Shown: one piece after another, positions 9,143-19,379 of the stretch
How the letters are laid out: every line of letters begins with the position of its first letter
Numbering within the stretch: the stretch's first letter is position 1
Assembly: GCA_004297215.1 (NCBI GenBank)
Contig: SCUM01000002.1
Coordinates: 70,270 to 134,269 of the forward strand
Direction: 5' to 3'
DNA length: 64,000 nt
Source of the DNA: Patescibacteria group bacterium
GTDB lineage: Bacteria; Patescibacteriota; Patescibacteriia; UBA9934; GWF2-40-263
Program-made: the position numbers and the translations under genes
Notes under the pieces: model-generated
What the model was told of the DNA's origin: nothing
Seen by the model: only the letters and a program-made list of their open reading frames with translations
The model's database searches: none

Positions 9143-9146
9143 AACA

Positions 9147-9173
9147 AAAGGCCCCGCGATCAGCGAGGCCTTT
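9147..9173 (-). terminator. Hairpin AAAGGCC...GGCCTTT downstream of fusA
   Basis: A 7-bp stem with a 13-nt loop. On the minus strand it is followed by a U-containing run. The strength of the T-tract is moderate. Confidence 0.4.
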
Positions 9174-9183
9174 CCTCTTACGA

Positions 9184-11280
9184 TCAGGCGGCGCGACGCG
9201 TCACTCCCGAACGCTCCTCGATGATCTTCTTGCTCACGTTGCCGGGCACTTCCTCGTAGTGGTCGAATTCCATGGAGTAGCTGGCGCGGCCCTGGGTGTT
9301 GGAGCGCAGCGTGGTGACGTAGCCGAACATCTCGGCAAGCGGCACGAACGCGGTGACGATCTTCGCCCCCCCGACGCGGTCGCCCATCTCCTGGATCTGG
9401 CCGCGCTTGGCGTTCAAGTCGCCCACCACGGTGCCCATGAACTCCTCGGGCATCACCACTTCCACCTTCATCATGGGTTCAAGCAGCGAGATGCCGGCCT
9501 TCTTGCAGGCGTCCTGGAACGCCATGGACCCGGCGATCTTGAACGCCGCCTCGTTGGAGTCCACGTCGTGGTAGGAACCGTCGAACACGGTCACCTTCAC
9601 GTCGATGAGCGGGAAGCCGGCGAGCACGCCGCGGTCGGCCGCCTCCTCGGCGCCCTTGGCGATCGGCTTGATGAACTCGCGGGGGATGGCGCCGCCCTTG
9701 ATCTCCTCGACGAACTCGAACCCCTTGCCAGCCTCGTTCTTTTCCACGCGCAGCCAGCAGTGGCCGTATTGGCCGCGGCCGCCGGACTGGCGGATGTACT
9801 TCCCTTCGCTCTCGGCTTCGCCCTTGATGGACTCGCGGTAGGCCACTTGCGGCTTGCCCACGTTCGCTTCCACGTTGAACTCGCGCTTCATGCGGTCCAC
9901 GATGATGTCGAGGTGGAGCTCGCCCATGCCGGAGATGATGACCTGGTTGGTCTCCTCGTCGGTGCGCACGCGGAAGGTGGGATCTTCCTCGGCGAGCTTC
10001 TGCAGCGCCACGCCCATCTTCTCCTGGTCGGCCTTGGTCTTGGGCTCGATGGCGATGGAGATGACCGGCTCCGGGAACACGATGGACTCGAGCACGATCG
10101 GACGCTCCTGGTCGCACAGCGTGTGGCCGGTGAAGGTCTCCTTGAGGCCCACGGCCGCGGCGATCTCGCCGGCGTACACCTCGTCCACGTCCTCGCGGGT
10201 GTTGGCGTGCAGGCGCACGATGCGGCCGATGCGCTCCTTTCCGCCGGTGCTCGAGTTGAGCACGTAGGAGCCGGCGGCGATCTTGCCGGAGTACACGCGG
10301 AAGAAGGCGAGCTTGCCCACGAACGGGTCGGCGGCGATCTTGAACGCGAGCGCGGCGAACGGCTCGTCATCGGAGGCCTTGCGCTCGATGAGCTCCTCCG
10401 AATCCGGGGCGTGTCCCTTGACCGGAGGGATGTCAAGCGGGCTCGGCAGGAATTCCACCACGGCGTCGAGCACCTGCTGCACCCCCTTGTTCTTGAGCGC
10501 GGAGCCGGTGAGCACCGGGAAGATGTCATTCGCGATGGTGGCCTTGCGCAGTCCGGCCTTGAGCTCCGGGACGGGAATCTCCTCCCCGGCCAGATAGCGC
10601 TCCATGAGCGATTCGTCGGTCTCGGCGATCGCCTCGACCAGTTTCTTCCGCCACTCCTCCACCGATGCCTTCATGTCCTCCGGGCAGTCGGACACCTCGA
10701 TGTCCTTTCCGAGGTCATCCTTGAAGATGTAGGCCTTCTTGTCGAACAGGTCCACGATTCCCTGGAAATTGGATTCCGACCCGATCGGGAGCTGGATGGG
10801 GTGGGCCTTCCTCGACAGGCGGGTGTGGATGGACGCGAGGTCCTTGAAATAGTCCGCGCCGGTGCGGTCGAGCTTGTTGATGAAGCACACGCGCGGCACG
10901 GCGTAGCCGTCGGCGTAGCGCCAGTTGGTCTCGGACTGCGGCTCCACGCCGGCCACGCCGTCGAACACGACGAGCGCGCCGTCGAGCACGCGAAGGGAAC
11001 GCTTCACTTCCACGGTGAAGTCCACGTGCCCGGGGGTGTCGATGAGGTTCATCCGATGTCCCTTCCAAAAACAGGTGGTGGCGGCGGCCGTGATGGTGAT
11101 GCCGCGTTCCTGCTCCTGCGCCATCCAGTCCATGGTAGCTTCGCCCTCGTGCACCTCGCCGATCTTATGCTTTTTGCCCGTATAAAACAGGATGCGTTCG
11201 CTCGTGGTGGTCTTGCCCGCATCGATGTGGGCGATGACGCCGAAGTTGCGCGTCTTTTCCAGGGAATACTCGCGTGCCAT
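9184..11280 (-). CDS. fusA: Elongation factor G
   Basis: 698-aa ORF with [17 protein letters not shown] and the full EF-G domain order. Confidence 0.97.
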
Positions 11281-14474: not shown

Positions 14475-15188
14475 TCACTTCCCGTGTCGACGTTCGCGGG
14501 AGCGGTAGTCCTTGAGGGCGGCGAGGAAATCCTCTTCGCCGAAATCCGGGAACATCTTCTCCGAGAAATGGAGCTGCGCGTCGGCGATGTCCCACATCAT
14601 GAACCCGCCGCTCAAGTGCGGCTCCCCGCCCGTGCGGATCAGCAGGTCGACGGGAGGGAGGTCCTTGGTGAGCAGGTGCCGCTTGATGGTCTCGACATCA
14701 ACGCGGAGCGACGGATCCTTGCGGCCTTCTTCTACGATCTGCTCCACCGCTTGCGTCATCTCGCTGATGCCGTCGTAGCCGTCGAAAATGTTCAGCAGGT
14801 GCCGGTCGTTGGATTTCGTCTTCTCAATGACGCCCTCGATCGCCTTCACGAGGCTCGCCGGCTGGGATTCACGCCAGGACCCGAACGCCTGCACTCTCAC
14901 GCCATATTCATGCACCTCCGGCATCTCCTGGAGATCCAGAAAAAATTCCTCAAGCACCTTATACAGGAAGTCGATCTCGATTTTCGGACGGTTCGTGAGA
15001 TTCGAGACGGAGGCGACCCAGGCGGATACGCAATATACGCCCTCCTTGAAGGCGGCGTTCAGGATCGGCCGGAACCGGCGCGCGCCGGCGTCATGGCCTT
15101 CCCACGGGTTGAGGCCGTGCGCCTTGGCCCACCGGCGGTTGCCGTCGGGGATGATCGCGACATGACGCGGGGTTTGGTCGTCTGGCAT
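14475..15188 (-). CDS. uppS: Isoprenyl transferase / undecaprenyl diphosphate synthase
   Basis: HVAIIPDGNRRWA..., the conserved UPP-synthase N-terminus, and a C-terminal ...RTGGEPHLSGGFMMW... Confidence 0.9.
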   Translation of the reverse strand: MPDDQTPRHVAIIPDGNRRWAKAHGLNPWEGHDAGARRFRPILNAAFKEGVYCVSAWVASVSNLTNRPKIEIDFLYKVLEEFFLDLQEMPEVHEYGVRVQAFGSWRESQPASLVKAIEGVIEKTKSNDRHLLNIFDGYDGISEMTQAVEQIVEEGRKDPSLRVDVETIKRHLLTKDLPPVDLLIRTGGEPHLSGGFMMWDIADAQLHFSEKMFPDFGEEDFLAALKDYRSRERRHGK

Positions 15189-15236
15189 ATCAGATTCATC
15201 GCGCGACCCTCCGCGTCGTTGCTCATCGAACGTTCT

Positions 15237-15264
15237 GTCGGGCTAGCGGGACTTGAACCCGCGG
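15237..15264 (-). repeat. Duplicated 3' portion of tRNA-Pro (T-arm + acceptor 3' strand, 28 nt)
   Basis: GCCGCGGGTTCAAGTCCCGCTAGCCCGA is identical to the 3' end of the complete tRNA-Pro about 85 nt upstream. A copy of the anticodon-loop segment GCATGGGGTGCAA precedes it at 15325-15337, with a ~58-nt GC-rich palindromic insert between. Confidence 0.6.
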
Positions 15265-15346
15265 CCTCCCCCGACGCCCCTGATGGGGGTCGGGGCTCCG
15301 ACCTCCCCTCCGGGAGCGTCGGAGTTGCACCCCATGCTTCAAAATT

Positions 15347-15422
15347 TGGTCGGGCTAGCGGGACTTGAACCCGCGGCCTCTTGCACCCCATGCAAGCGCG
15401 CTACCAACTGCGCCATAGCCCG
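15347..15422 (-). tRNA. tRNA-Pro (anticodon GGG)
   Basis: Cloverleaf read by eye: acceptor CGGGCTA/TAGCCCG, D-arm GCGC-AGTTGGTA-GCGC, anticodon arm CTTGC-ATGGGGT-GCAAG, T-arm GCGGG-TTCAAGT-CCCGC, and CCA encoded. Confidence 0.85.
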
Positions 15423-15528
15423 ACCAAATTTTTAAGCATCCCGAGCGCGTACCAGGTCCGACGCGCTGATGCGGTCGGACCCCCGACCTCCCCCGACGCT
15501 CCGCTGCGGCGGAGGTCGGGGGAGCGTC

Positions 15529-15543
15529 GGGGCTGCGCCATAG
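15529..15543 (-). repeat. Duplicated 5' portion of tRNA-Pro (CGGGCTATGGCGCAG)
   Basis: An exact copy of tRNA-Pro positions 1-15, lying ~110 nt upstream of the gene in the same orientation and embedded in GC-rich palindromes. Confidence 0.5.
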
Positions 15544-15876
15544 CCCGACACAAGGTTCGATGAGTCGCGTGAACTCTAGCCGAAAACGAAAAAATGGCCA
15601 AGGCCATGGCGCCTCGCCAGTCGATCGGACCATTCGCGGAAGGATCCGATACGGCTACGGCACGTCCGGGTCACGATGATGAGAGCTTGTCGGCCCACCA
15701 TGCACGTTCCCGTACGCCGGTTTCAGTCAGGGATGCGAAGTGATTCTGGAACGCATCCGATCGACTGGGAGACTCCTACACCGTACCAGACCATCGAAGG
15801 CTGGCAAGCGTCGGAGCCGGACCATTATCCCCGAACTGTCCACGGAGTTATCCACATGGCATTTCATCGCTAAGAC

Positions 15877-15906
15877 AAAGAAAAATCCCGACAGCTAGTG
15901 TCGGGA
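15877..15906 (-). terminator. Intrinsic terminator (TCCCGACA-GCTAGT-GTCGGGA + U-run) overlapping stop of the 15895-16419 gene
   Basis: An 8-bp stem followed on the minus strand by TTTTTCTTTGTC. Confidence 0.5.
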
Positions 15907-16419
15907 AAGCGGGATGGACGACTCGCTTAAGAGCGAGGAGAACGGGACGAGCATCACCGTGAGGCGCGCGGGCAGCCGTGCCGGATGGCCTTGCACGCGC
16001 GCGTACAGGTCGTCGAGCATTTCGGCGTGCGCGAGCATGCCCGGCAGGTCCTGGTCGTCCACCACCAGGTACACCGGATGTCCCGACTCGATCGCCTCGC
16101 ACAGGACGACGAGGAACAGGTCGAGGACGTCGCGACGCAGGCCGCTCCCGGCCGGGCTGACGGACTTCACGAGCTTGGCACGGGCACCGAGATACGCGCT
16201 GCGCGTGAAGGCCTGCGCCTTGGGGTACGCCTTGCGCAGGTCCGCGAGCGCCTGCTCCGACGTGGCGTCTGGACACAACAGGCGGAGGCCGGCTTTCGCG
16301 AGCGCGCGATCCGCGAGCAGCGACGCATCCTTCGCGATCCGGAGCACGCCGCGGCCGGACGCCTGCTCGTTCGTGAGGTCGCGCAACGAACAGCGCTTGG
16401 TAAAAAGGGCGATACGCAT
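15895..16419 (-). CDS. Hypothetical protein (174 aa)
   Basis: Coherent ORF with balanced composition. The longer overlapping ORF 15848-16519 looks like an Arg/Pro-rich artefact. No confident domain call. Confidence 0.55.
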   Translation of the reverse strand: MRIALFTKRCSLRDLTNEQASGRGVLRIAKDASLLADRALAKAGLRLLCPDATSEQALADLRKAYPKAQAFTRSAYLGARAKLVKSVSPAGSGLRRDVLDLFLVVLCEAIESGHPVYLVVDDQDLPGMLAHAEMLDDLYARVQGHPARLPARLTVMLVPFSSLLSESSIPLSRH

Positions 16420-16694
16420 GTGTTTCTCCGTCTTCAGAGGTAGGTCGCGGCTTCTCCCCTGTGGAGCAGCCGCGATGGAACATCTGAAAAGCCACCGCGC
16501 GAGACGGTGGCTTTTGCATGTCAGCGTAAGAGTCCGTGGGCTCTACCTGTCATGTGCCACCGCGCTTCCCTTCCAATCAAAGGAGACGCAAACGACGCCG
16601 AGGCAAATGCCCGTCGTCATCGTCGCGTACATGTTGCTGGCGGTGGTTGCCATAACGATATCCATGCTAATCCCGCCCCAGAAGGGCGTCAAAT

Positions 16695-16724
16695 GAAAAA
16701 CGACTTGCCTTGTGGACAAGTCGT
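16695..16724 (-). terminator. Hairpin ACGACTTG...CAAGTCGT + U-run downstream of the RelA/SpoT-like gene
   Basis: An 8-bp stem with a 9-nt loop, followed on the minus strand by TTTTTCATTT. Confidence 0.45.
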
Positions 16725-16734
16725 CGTGCCGTCT

Positions 16735-17871
16735 TCAGTCGTCCCACTCTACGTGCCGGCACACGTGCCGATACATCTTGCGCCGCACGCCGCGATCCCG
16801 GGTGTCCACGCCGTAGATGGACGCGGGGAGCAGCCGTTCGATGGGCCCGCCCTCCGCCACGCCGCTCATGAACTCGTACATGAGGTGGTTCACGGTATCG
16901 GAGGCGTAGAGGCTGGAGAGGCTTCCCTCGAACGTCATGATCTGGATCTCATAGCGCCGTTTCTGCCAGCGCAGGAGCATCTTGATCATGCGGTGGTCGG
17001 GCGAAGAATGCGGGTTGCTCGCGTCCGCCGGATTGCCGCCAGCGAGGTTGTTCTCGACCTTGTCCACCGTCGCGTCGATGCGACCGGCGAACCGCTTGAG
17101 CGCCTCGCACGCCCCTTCCGCCTCCGCGACGTCCGGACAGATGAACCGGAATCCGAGGTGGTCGGTGAGGTCGAAGGGGTTGCGTCCCTTCGCGTGGCGG
17201 CTCCATTGCTTGAGCACGACGCGGAACGCCTTCTTCACGCGCGCGTCCATCGATGCCCGGAACCCGCCGACGATCCGGCACGGGAACTCGGTGCGCATGT
17301 GCATCTGGGCGATGGACGGCTCAAGCTCGCGGTCGATCGCGAGCTCCACCACGTGATGCGCCCGATGGATGCCATGCAGCGAGTCCACCACGAGGTCGAC
17401 GCTGCGTTCCTCGAACAGGAGCTCGCGCATCTTGGCGATCATCGCGCGCAGGTCCGCCTTCTTCTCCCGCAGCGGATACCGGCTCTCCTCGGCCTGCATG
17501 TCCACGCCGATGTCCGTGAGCGAGATGGCCTCGAACCGGCCTTGCCGCTGCAGCGTGCTGTGGCCGTACGTACGGGCCCACTGATAGCGCTCCCGCACGT
17601 CGTCGATGCTCTCGACCTCGGACTCGAACCCGAGCGTGCGCCAGTACTGCGACGGGAAGAAGGTCTTCACGAGCTCCTCCCGCGACTCGTACGCCTTCAC
17701 GGCGTTCGTCGCCGCGCCGTCGAGGTCCGCTTCGTCCCAATCGGCGAGCAGCGCGGTGCGCCACTCGACGGCTTCCTCGAACTGCTCCTTCGATTCGGAC
17801 AACCAGTCGCTCGATCGCTTCAACAGCTGAAGCCGTGTGGCCTCATCGACCAATTCCTGCCTCTCGCTCAT
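16735..17871 (-). CDS. RelA/SpoT-domain (alarmone-synthetase-like nucleotidyltransferase) protein with ~200-aa N-terminal domain of unknown function
   Basis: The C-terminal half carries DLTDHLGFRFICPDVAEAEG (the D-x-x-G-x-R-h-i motif of RelA/SpoT synthetase folds) and RRYEIQIMTFEGSLSSLYASDTVNHLMYE (compare EhQIRT...h..YK). The start was trimmed to MSERQ ('cat' at 17869-17871) because the long ORF overlaps ndk. Confidence 0.7.
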   Translation of the reverse strand: MSERQELVDEATRLQLLKRSSDWLSESKEQFEEAVEWRTALLADWDEADLDGAATNAVKAYESREELVKTFFPSQYWRTLGFESEVESIDDVRERYQWARTYGHSTLQRQGRFEAISLTDIGVDMQAEESRYPLREKKADLRAMIAKMRELLFEERSVDLVVDSLHGIHRAHHVVELAIDRELEPSIAQMHMRTEFPCRIVGGFRASMDARVKKAFRVVLKQWSRHAKGRNPFDLTDHLGFRFICPDVAEAEGACEALKRFAGRIDATVDKVENNLAGGNPADASNPHSSPDHRMIKMLLRWQKRRYEIQIMTFEGSLSSLYASDTVNHLMYEFMSGVAEGGPIERLLPASIYGVDTRDRGVRRKMYRHVCRHVEWDD

Positions 17872-17966
17872 GCATCCTCCGCGAAACGGGAACCTACGGG
17901 CGGCCTGACGGTAGCGGACGAAACGAAAACGCGCAAGGCATGTTTCCCGCGCGTCCCGATGTCCCT

Positions 17967-18449
17967 TTAGACCCCCTCGCCGAACACGTAACGGTCGGTG
18001 ATCTTCTCGTAGCTGAACAGCTCGTCGTCCTTGAAGAAGCGCTTCACCTCGGCCAGGGCGGCCTCCGGGGAGTCGGAGGCATGCACCAGGTTGCTCGGCA
18101 CGTTCATGGACAGGTCGGCGCGGATGGTGCCGGCGTCGGCCTCGCGCGGGTTGGTGGAACCCACGATCTTGCGCACGCTCTCGATCGCGTCGAGCCCCTC
18201 GAGGATCATGGCGCACACCGGGGTCTGCATCATGAACTTCTTGAGCCCGGGGAAGAACCCCTTCTGCGCGAGGTGCGCGTAGTGCTCGTCGAGCAAATCG
18301 TCGGTAAGGTGGATGAACTTCATCGCGACGATCTTGAGCCCCTTGCGTTCGAAGCGCTGGATCACCTCGCCCAAGAGGTCGCGCTGGAGCGCGTCGGGCT
18401 TCACGAGGACGAGGGTTTTCTGGACAGCGGCCATAGCGCGGGAGTTCAT
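17967..18449 (-). CDS. ndk: Nucleoside diphosphate kinase
   Basis: ...TLVLVKPDALQRDLLGEVIQRFERKGLKIVAMK...NLVHASDS..., an NDK signature including the catalytic His region. Confidence 0.95.
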   Translation of the reverse strand: MNSRAMAAVQKTLVLVKPDALQRDLLGEVIQRFERKGLKIVAMKFIHLTDDLLDEHYAHLAQKGFFPGLKKFMMQTPVCAMILEGLDAIESVRKIVGSTNPREADAGTIRADLSMNVPSNLVHASDSPEAALAEVKRFFKDDELFSYEKITDRYVFGEGV

Positions 18450-18473
18450 TGCGCTGAAGCTACCACCCTGCGG

Positions 18474-19379
18474 CTAAAACGGCAAGGGGGCCGGTTCGAC
18501 GATCGGCTCGCCGCCGGAGCTGCGGATGAGGATGTCGCCTTGAAGGTCGGTGCGGAACGTCCCGATGCCGAGGTCGGCGAACCGCGCGAGCACTTCCTCG
18601 TGCGGGTGGCCATACGAATTCTTCGCACCGCAGGAGATGACCGCGACTTCCGGCGAAACGGCGGACAAAAGCGCGCGCGAAGACGAGGTGCGGCTACCGT
18701 GATGACCGGCCTTCAGCACGTCCACGTCGCCGACCTGCGCGGCATAGGCCACTTCCTCCTCGACTTCCGTGTCGGCGGTGAGCAGCACGCTCGTATCCCC
18801 GTAACGGACGAGCAGCACGATGCCGACGCGGTTCGTGTCGGAAACCGTCTTCCCGTCGAGCACGCCGTCGGGCCAGAGCACGTCGAACGTGACGCCGTCG
18901 ACCTTGAACGCGTCGCCGGCCTTCACGAGACGGCGCTGTGCCCCCTCGTCGCGGATTCCCTCCGAGAGCGCCGTCGCGACCCGCGTGTCCTTGATGAGCC
19001 CGGTCTCGTACACGGCCGCCACGTCGTAACGCGCGAGCACGGAAACGAGCCCGGCGACATGGTCGGAGTCCGGGTGCGTGGGGACGATCGCGTCGAGCGT
19101 GCGATCCGTGGGCGGCATCAGCTCCCCGAGCTTCGTGAGCACGGCGTTGCCCGGTCCGCCATCGACGAGGATTTGGCGCCCGTGCGGCGTCTCGATGAAG
19201 ACGGCGTCCCCTTGTCCCACGTCGAGCACCCATATGCGCAGATCGCCCGTCGAAGCCATGATCGGACGCCTGGCATCTGACACATACAATGCAAACGCGG
19301 CAGCACATGCGACGACGAGCGCACTAAACCCCGCGAGCGGAAACCATGTTGGGATCAAACGCTTCTCAAGCGACGCCAT
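18474..19379 (-). CDS. comEC: ComEC/Rec2 C-terminal metallo-beta-lactamase domain protein (separate ORF)
   Basis: An N-terminal TM helix, then WVLDVGQGDAVFIETPHG...PTHPDSDHVAG...GHHGS, which are MBL motifs. It overlaps the upstream ComEC membrane-domain ORF by 25 nt in a different frame. Confidence 0.8.
   Translation of the reverse strand: MASLEKRLIPTWFPLAGFSALVVACAAAFALYVSDARRPIMASTGDLRIWVLDVGQGDAVFIETPHGRQILVDGGPGNAVLTKLGELMPPTDRTLDAIVPTHPDSDHVAGLVSVLARYDVAAVYETGLIKDTRVATALSEGIRDEGAQRRLVKAGDAFKVDGVTFDVLWPDGVLDGKTVSDTNRVGIVLLVRYGDTSVLLTADTEVEEEVAYAAQVGDVDVLKAGHHGSRTSSSRALLSAVSPEVAVISCGAKNSYGHPHEEVLARFADLGIGTFRTDLQGDILIRSSGGEPIVEPAPLPF

Follow-up and report, generated by a model that had tools for sequence, protein, structure and literature searches.

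RelA/SpoT homologue (RSH) enzymes are catalogued by profile hidden Markov models. A census of 2020 recognises 30 subfamilies of small alarmone synthetases (SAS), 11 of small alarmone hydrolases (SAH) and 13 of long RSH, and its text makes no mention of the Candidate Phyla Radiation (CPR) (PMC7229694). The housekeeping SAS RelQ (SAS1/YjbM) and RelP (SAS2/YwaC) are single-domain proteins of ~200–230 aa; long RSH enzymes (Rel, RelA, SpoT) carry an N-terminal HD hydrolase or pseudo-hydrolase and a C-terminal TGS/ACT regulatory region; toxic SAS (toxSAS: CapRel, FaRel, FaRel2, PhRel, Tas1) are, according to the same census, encoded at loci that form conserved bicistronic, often overlapping operons (PMC7229694), and in fused CapRel an N-terminal RelA/SpoT synthetase domain (RSD) is followed by a C-terminal pseudo-zinc-finger antitoxin and sensor. 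A literature search combining CPR or Patescibacteria with alarmone synthetases turned up no account of RSH enzymes from such bacteria. Here we analyse gene X, which encodes a 378-aa divergent RSD protein, and its neighbour Y (174 aa) in a stretch of 64,000 nucleotides (hereafter, the window) of a Patescibacteria group bacterium (contig SCUM01000002.1, positions 70,270 to 134,269; assembly GCA_004297215.1).

Judged by its motifs and predicted fold, X is a real but very distant member of the RSD superfamily with its catalytic constellation intact. With moderate confidence, we take it for a catalytically competent housekeeping nucleotide 3′-pyrophosphokinase, probably an alarmone synthetase, expressed together with nucleoside diphosphate kinase (Ndk), the product of the adjacent gene. 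An earlier annotation of the window (the original prediction) had proposed that X and Y form an acquired toxSAS-like toxin–antitoxin (TA) or defence islet. That proposal is not supported by comparison with related loci, whereas the accompanying remark that the proximity of ndk fits a nucleotide-metabolic role proved to be the stronger lead.

Relationship of X to RelA/SpoT synthetase domains

The open reading frames (ORFs) of X and Y lie where the original prediction had put them, and X does contain, at residues 234 and 305, the two peptides that it quoted as RSD hallmarks. Its assignment of the C-terminal half to the RSD fold was borne out by family-profile, hhalign and structure searches, though not by the Pfam family RelA_SpoT (PF04607) alone, which matches X below threshold (E 0.014, 16.1 bits against a gathering score of 27). 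X has no match in NCBIfam, PADLOC or PHROGs, nor did a search of PDB sequences with the single sequence or a five-sequence profile yield one. Only a 78-sequence family profile reached RSDs in the PDB, namely RelSeq (E 7.5e-4), Mycobacterium tuberculosis Rel, E. coli RelA and RelP. With hhalign, columns 196–331 of the family profile aligned to residues 243–360 of E. coli RelA, used as a single sequence (E 3e-5, probability 73%), and five RSD motifs of the family fall in register with RelA in this alignment and with RelSeq. PF04607 was the top family for five out of five close and distant homologues of X and matched 25 of the 78 family members below threshold (best E 2e-4), being the sole Pfam family that recurred. 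The RSD signal of X exceeds chance only through several such lines combined.

The five motifs occur in the RSD order, including the metal-binding D and E, with some variants. They read R211-x-K213-(7)-K221 (syn1), D237-x-x-G240-x-[K/R] (syn2), [F/Y/H]293-[R/K]294-x-x-K297 (syn3), E308-x-Q310-x-x-T313 (syn4) and H329-x-x-Y332-[R/K] (syn5). K213, D237 and E308 are invariant in the family alignment (each 76/76). On the basic, ATP-binding side, R211 is kept in 70/76 sequences and K221 in 75/76; on the acceptor side, residue 293 is aromatic in 68/76 and K297 is present in 62/76. Conservation at the remaining motif positions ranges from T313 (50/76), Q310 (60/76) and G240 (64/76) to H329 (71/76) and Y332 (74/76). 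R211, K221, N286, S289, H329, Y332, P349 and Y353 are each conserved to at least 90% in alignments of 76–78 sequences.

An AlphaFold2 (AF2) model of X built with its three closest sequences was unusable (predicted local distance difference test score, pLDDT, 37.5) and was superseded by one from a 76-sequence alignment, with a pLDDT of 95.9 and a predicted template modelling score of 0.91. The best 46 matches of this model in a Foldseek search of the PDB are all RSD proteins, and its best matches in BFVD are phage proteins annotated as RelA/SpoT; the nearest structural neighbours of the predicted structure are RSD enzymes. X thus has the motifs and the fold of the RSD superfamily, though not a score above the Pfam threshold, and founds a very divergent, unannotated RSD branch.

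In its presumed mode of action X is most like a SAS. Compared with RelP and RelQ, it is longer, having in addition an N-terminal helical domain of 152 residues and a beta-meander of three strands; K replaces H in its syn3 (F/Y-R/K-x-x-K), and in its syn4 the place of the R of EIQIRT is taken by a hydrophobic residue or Q. It also differs from them in lying below the PF04607 threshold, in its fixed place next to ndk and in its restriction to Uhrbacteria/CPR. It has neither the N-terminal HD hydrolase or pseudo-hydrolase nor the C-terminal TGS/ACT region of long RSH, and it differs from the exported Streptomyces SAS, SaSAS (PDB 8vx3; export according to the title of the entry), in N-terminal architecture and in taxon.

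X is sharply divided in charge, residues 1–200 being acidic (pI 4.9) and residues 201–378 basic (pI 9.2). The original prediction had described an acidic N-terminal domain without recognisable motif, and indeed this part has no match in Pfam, NCBIfam, PADLOC, PHROG or PDB sequences; the domain is without relatives outside the X family. Within the family it is well conserved at E114 (69/76), F113 and A115, and in the beta-meander at F153, H166 and R199. The conservation of E114, F113 and A115 is more in keeping with a conserved ligand or partner than with a phage sensor that evolves fast.

Distribution and synteny of the X family

To collect the family, 1.84 billion representative proteins were searched exhaustively with HMMER, the query being a profile built from X and two close homologues. 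The family comprises 77 clusters, nearly all 360–400 aa long and with matches that span the whole protein, and no canonical RSH or SAS was among the 77 proteins retrieved. Named members come from Candidatus Uhrbacteria or unclassified Patescibacteria only, and all are annotated as hypothetical. As the family lies below the Pfam threshold and all its named members are annotated in this way, it is probably outside current RSH classifications.

Loci were gathered through exact-protein look-ups and pattern scans, the latter yielding two genome contigs, three metagenome contigs and no viral contigs; because the peptide patterns are narrow, these counts are not a measure of prevalence. In all 12 distinct loci that encode the ~380-aa type and include upstream sequence (the window, L001, L005, L006, L008, L009, L011, L015, L017, L019, L022 and L023), the gene that precedes X, directly and on the same strand, is ndk, usually at a distance of 65–95 nt and in L009 of 3 nt. 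The order ugd-comEC-MBL-ndk-X...uppS-murA-M50-rpsL-rpsG-fusA, in which ugd encodes UDP-glucose dehydrogenase, MBL a protein of metallo-beta-lactamase fold and M50 a peptidase, is kept down to ~20–25% identity of X. X and Y resemble neighbouring genes in GC content and in GC content at third codon positions (GC3), showing no compositional anomaly, and the narrow pattern scan found no X relatives on viral contigs. From the conserved order, the neighbour-like composition and the absence of viral-contig relatives in that scan, it follows that X is, on comparative grounds, to be regarded as a vertically inherited core gene of the Candidatus Uhrbacteria lineage.

X differs in these respects from the toxSAS toxins: it occupies a core position after ndk, it lacks both a conserved adjacent or overlapping antitoxin and a mobile or patchy distribution, and no PADLOC model matches it. 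For genome annotation, an RSD beside an orphan gene and a tRNA is insufficient for a toxSAS call; synteny across relatives decides.

X is most likely transcribed with ndk, to judge from the arrangement of the two genes. The scan for terminators found no terminator-like site in the ndk–X interval of the window and one directly after X. X starts with an ATG preceded at 6 nt by GGAGG; a longer, GTG-initiated version of the ORF, overlapping ndk, was rejected as an artefact. The spacer (17871–17966, minus strand) holds a weak hairpin, ACGCGC...GCGCGT, followed by TTTTCGTTTCG, whose 14-nt loop exceeds the limit of the terminator scan. At this hairpin, transcription from ndk into X could be partly terminated or attenuated.

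A minority of longer and more distant relatives (~450–540 aa; P0063, P0071, P0073, P0077 and P0079–P0082; L013, 5878–7320) have in common with X only the RSD-like C-terminal half, their other N-termini having no Pfam match. The gene for P0077 has another core context: it lies between an aspS/asnS-type synthetase gene and small ORFs, near recJ and the gene for the CCA-adding enzyme, and ndk is not adjacent.

Proposed function of X and alternative explanations

From homology, predicted fold, catalytic-residue conservation, synteny and distribution we infer an activity, an acceptor, a transcriptional link to ndk and a role for the N-terminal domain. The core keeps the ATP-phosphate-binding R-x-K...K, the two metal-binding carboxylates D237 and E308, and H-x-x-Y; at the acceptor site it has an aromatic platform, next to it a basic residue, and a lysine. 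Such an enzyme would most likely move the beta,gamma-pyrophosphate of ATP onto the 3′-OH of a purine nucleotide, and its product would be an alarmone of the (p)ppGpp or (pp)pApp type. Ndk has a recognised place in the (p)ppGpp cycle, where it converts GDP to GTP (PMC7552824, PMC7581866). Ndk could supply or recycle the NDP/NTP pool, interconverting substrates and products of the alarmone cycle, and the N-terminal domain of X would most likely serve as a regulatory or oligomerisation module. If X is active, at least one CPR lineage retains nucleotide-alarmone chemistry in an unusual form; X would also provide a new regulatory domain for RSDs and a rare, strictly conserved Ndk–RSD gene pair, testable for metabolic coupling.

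A further-reaching version is possible, though we hold it only tentatively. According to it, the ndk-linked family is an unclassified RSH subfamily and the principal, perhaps only, alarmone synthetase of Candidatus Uhrbacteria, forming a functional unit with Ndk and sensing a non-ribosome signal through its private N-terminal domain. Were this version true, a reduced-genome episymbiotic CPR lineage would have its own stringent control, or a new 3′-pyrophosphorylated nucleotide.

Several observations weigh against a housekeeping pyrophosphokinase coupled to Ndk. The acceptor substrate is not readable from sequence, and no hydrolase partner for X was identified in the window. None of the 78 family members reaches the gathering score of Pfam RelA_SpoT, and two motif positions in the X of the window itself differ from the consensus of the family, with H293 in place of F/Y and E333 in place of R/K. 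The ndk–X spacer extends to 402 nt in L005 and to 619 nt in L011, where it holds an antisense ORF, which speaks against co-transcription. Finally, the adjacency of ndk and X may in part be the frozen synteny of small genomes and not a functional link.

Four other explanations were considered, each less likely than a housekeeping nucleotide pyrophosphokinase. The one that survives best, though unlikely, is that X is a housekeeping RNA or tRNA 3′-end pyrophosphokinase, which tunes translation by a reversible block of tRNA CCA ends and makes no free nucleotide alarmone. Several RSD enzymes are reported to pyrophosphorylate tRNA (PMC11245113, PMC11782079); the RSD half of X is basic, and the neighbourhood is rich in translation genes, with tRNA-Pro and rpsL-rpsG-fusA nearby. 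A little less probable still is that X is a nucleotidyltransferase of the Pol-beta superfamily with another chemistry (nucleotidylation of protein, RNA or a small molecule), its likeness to RSDs being superficial, or that it is a catalytically dead scaffold.

We regard as improbable that X is a single-chain, auto-inhibited immune sensor of toxSAS type, similar to CapRel, in which the N-terminal helices act as a built-in antitoxin and phage sensor and infection releases a tRNA- or ATP-pyrophosphorylating RSD. The domain order is the reverse of that in CapRel, as the original prediction had already pointed out, and nothing in X is like the CapRel pseudo-zinc-finger domain. Moreover, X holds one fixed core position in all lineages and not places in variable islands, its N-terminal positions are strongly conserved, and the narrow scan found no relatives on viral contigs.

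Least supported, and in our view very improbable, is the TA model, in which X is a toxSAS toxin, Y its antitoxin and the pair an acquired islet at tRNA-Pro: X does have an RSD, Y is an orphan without assigned function that always stands behind X where present, and the adjacent tRNA-Pro has duplicated fragments such as follow integration events, but X keeps its syntenic place behind ndk throughout the family (down to ~20% identity), Y is missing within 6–8 kb of X from five X-bearing lineages, the two genes are separated by ~315 bp holding the terminator of X, a promoter-like site and a small ORF, unlike the often overlapping operons of described toxSAS loci, Y matches nothing in PADLOC, Pfam or PHROG, every one of the tRNA fragments is situated beyond Y and one Y-bearing locus (L001) has none of them, and neither viral-contig relatives (in the narrow scan) nor a compositional anomaly were seen.

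Gene Y and the X–Y interval

Even with a profile query, only five clusters of Y were found among 5.8 billion proteins. Y occurs in four lineages (the window, L001–4, L016 and L019/20), always after X and a small ORF, and is absent within 6–8 kb of X from L005, L008, L009, L011 and L015. In L009 the order is ndk-X-tRNA-Pro(GGG)-uppS, suggesting an insertion of Y into the X–tRNA-Pro interval in one subclade. Y and the small ORF joined the locus later, in that subclade only, and are not an obligate partner of X. Among the observations that would count against the islet, the original prediction had named a grouping of X with RelP/RelQ-like housekeeping enzymes together with a neighbour that is a core gene in all relatives; neither was seen in this literal form, as X forms no cluster with RelP/RelQ and some relatives are without Y.

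The suggestion that Y might be an antitoxin found no support in family searches: Y has no significant match in Pfam, NCBIfam, PADLOC, PHROG or PDB sequences and matches none of the known antitoxin families of toxSAS (Panacea/DUF4065, SAH, ATfaRel2-like and others). Its description as a separately terminated gene was accurate, both X and Y having hairpins of their own (Table 1).

The X–Y gap contains, in order, the X terminator, the promoter-like site, the small ORF and a second hairpin with a T-run. The helix of the X terminator is preserved with different bases in L001, L016 and L019. Homologues of the small ORF, 33–38 aa long and in frame, occur in all four Y-bearing lineages, and in L003 it is called as a 33-aa gene. 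Their consensus is MAxRASN...VVCVSFxWKGSAVxHG, and another hairpin spans the stop codon. The 3′ arm of the second hairpin (CGGTGG) is duplicated upstream, inside the end of the small ORF, as GCGCGGTGG; two alternative pairings are therefore possible. The region could be a small gene in its own right or act on Y as a leader-peptide attenuator, the attenuator being an idea not established by the comparison of only 3–4 sequences.

Between the Y terminator and another terminator-like hairpin (15599–15616) lie ~290 nt (15599–15886, minus strand) with no convincing ORF and no Rfam match. L001 lacks this stretch, a mere ~117 bp separating Y from tRNA-Pro there.

Surroundings of X and the tRNA-Pro locus

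Every gene in the neighbourhood of X is carried on the minus strand, and the order assigned from Pfam matches is ugd, comEC, MBL, ndk, X, Y, tRNA-Pro(GGG), uppS, murA, M50 peptidase and rpsL (Table 1). The X–Y pair is flanked by tRNA-Pro and ndk, as the original prediction stated. An Rfam scan of 15000–18600 identified the tRNA only; matches to RNAI (E 0.2) and Plastid-ycf2 were rejected as chance. A tblastn search confined to the window and the fetched loci, with E. coli RelA as query, gave no canonical RSH.

Table 1. Features around X in the window (positions are those of the window unless another locus is named)
Feature	Position	Strand	Remarks
ndk (nucleoside diphosphate kinase)	17967-18449	-	PF00334, E 3e-50; directly upstream of X, 95-nt spacer
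X, 378-aa divergent RSD protein	16735-17871	-	NCBI: hypothetical protein EPO34_04635, Patescibacteria group bacterium
X N-terminal domain, residues 1-152	17416-17871	-	acidic, all-helical, family-specific; conserved R-F-E114-A motif
X beta-meander, residues 153-203	17263-17415	-	three extra long beta-strands between helical domain and RSD core; DSSP of the pLDDT-96 model
X RSD core, residues 204-378	16738-17262	-	motifs syn1-syn5
Terminator-like hairpin and T-run, directly 3′ of X stop codon	16699-16725	-	terminator scan
Promoter-like TTGACG-17-TAGCAT, 5′ of small ORF	16664-16692	-	promoter-like site from scan
Conserved small ORF, 36 aa in the window (MATTASNMYATMTTGICLGVVCVSFDWKGSAVAHDR)	16543-16653	-	in-frame homologues in Y-bearing lineages
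Second conserved hairpin and T-run (AAAAGCCACCG...CGGTGGCTTTT) between small ORF and Y	16487-16515	-	3-4 sequences compared
Small-ORF/hairpin region as a whole	16487-16692; L001 7757-7879; L016; L019 4966-5290	- (window)	
Y, 174-aa basic orphan protein	15895-16419	-	NCBI: EPO34_04630, hypothetical protein, Patescibacteria group bacterium
Terminator-like hairpin overlapping Y stop codon	15886-15906	-	terminator scan
tRNA-Pro(GGG) locus	15222-15564	-	complete tRNA 15347-15422, nested within split older copy

At the tRNA-Pro locus an older copy of the gene is split into a 17-nt 5′ fragment (15533–15549) and a 32-nt 3′ fragment (15237–15268) around the complete tRNA, which has its own complementary leader and trailer arms of 24 nt. 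The outer arms (CTCATCGAAC.../...GTTCGATGAG) are those that flank the intact tRNA-Pro in L009, and GC-rich palindromes (CCCCCGACCTCCCCCG) fill the insert. From the sequence, the nested arrangement resembles a scar left when ~265 bp were inserted or duplicated. The att-like repeats of the original prediction are real insofar as these tRNA fragments exist; all of them are found on the side of Y that faces uppS and none towards ndk, and the X–Y pair is therefore not bracketed by repeats. The nested arrangement and its fragments are absent from L001, which does carry Y.

Other loci of the family showed further peculiarities. In the low-GC Uhrbacteria locus L005, 630 bp after X (9143–9773) contain no ORF of at least 100 aa. 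The opposite-strand ORF between ndk and X in L011 (5429–5794), also present in L012, encodes 121 aa. In L001 and also in L002, from related Uhrbacteria, the interval between tRNA-Pro and uppS (L001, 8725–12097) carries carotenoid-like genes (polyprenyl synthase, squalene/phytoene synthase and an amine-oxidase/phytoene-desaturase-like gene) followed by DUF488 and UbiA, a cargo that is unexpected in a CPR genome.

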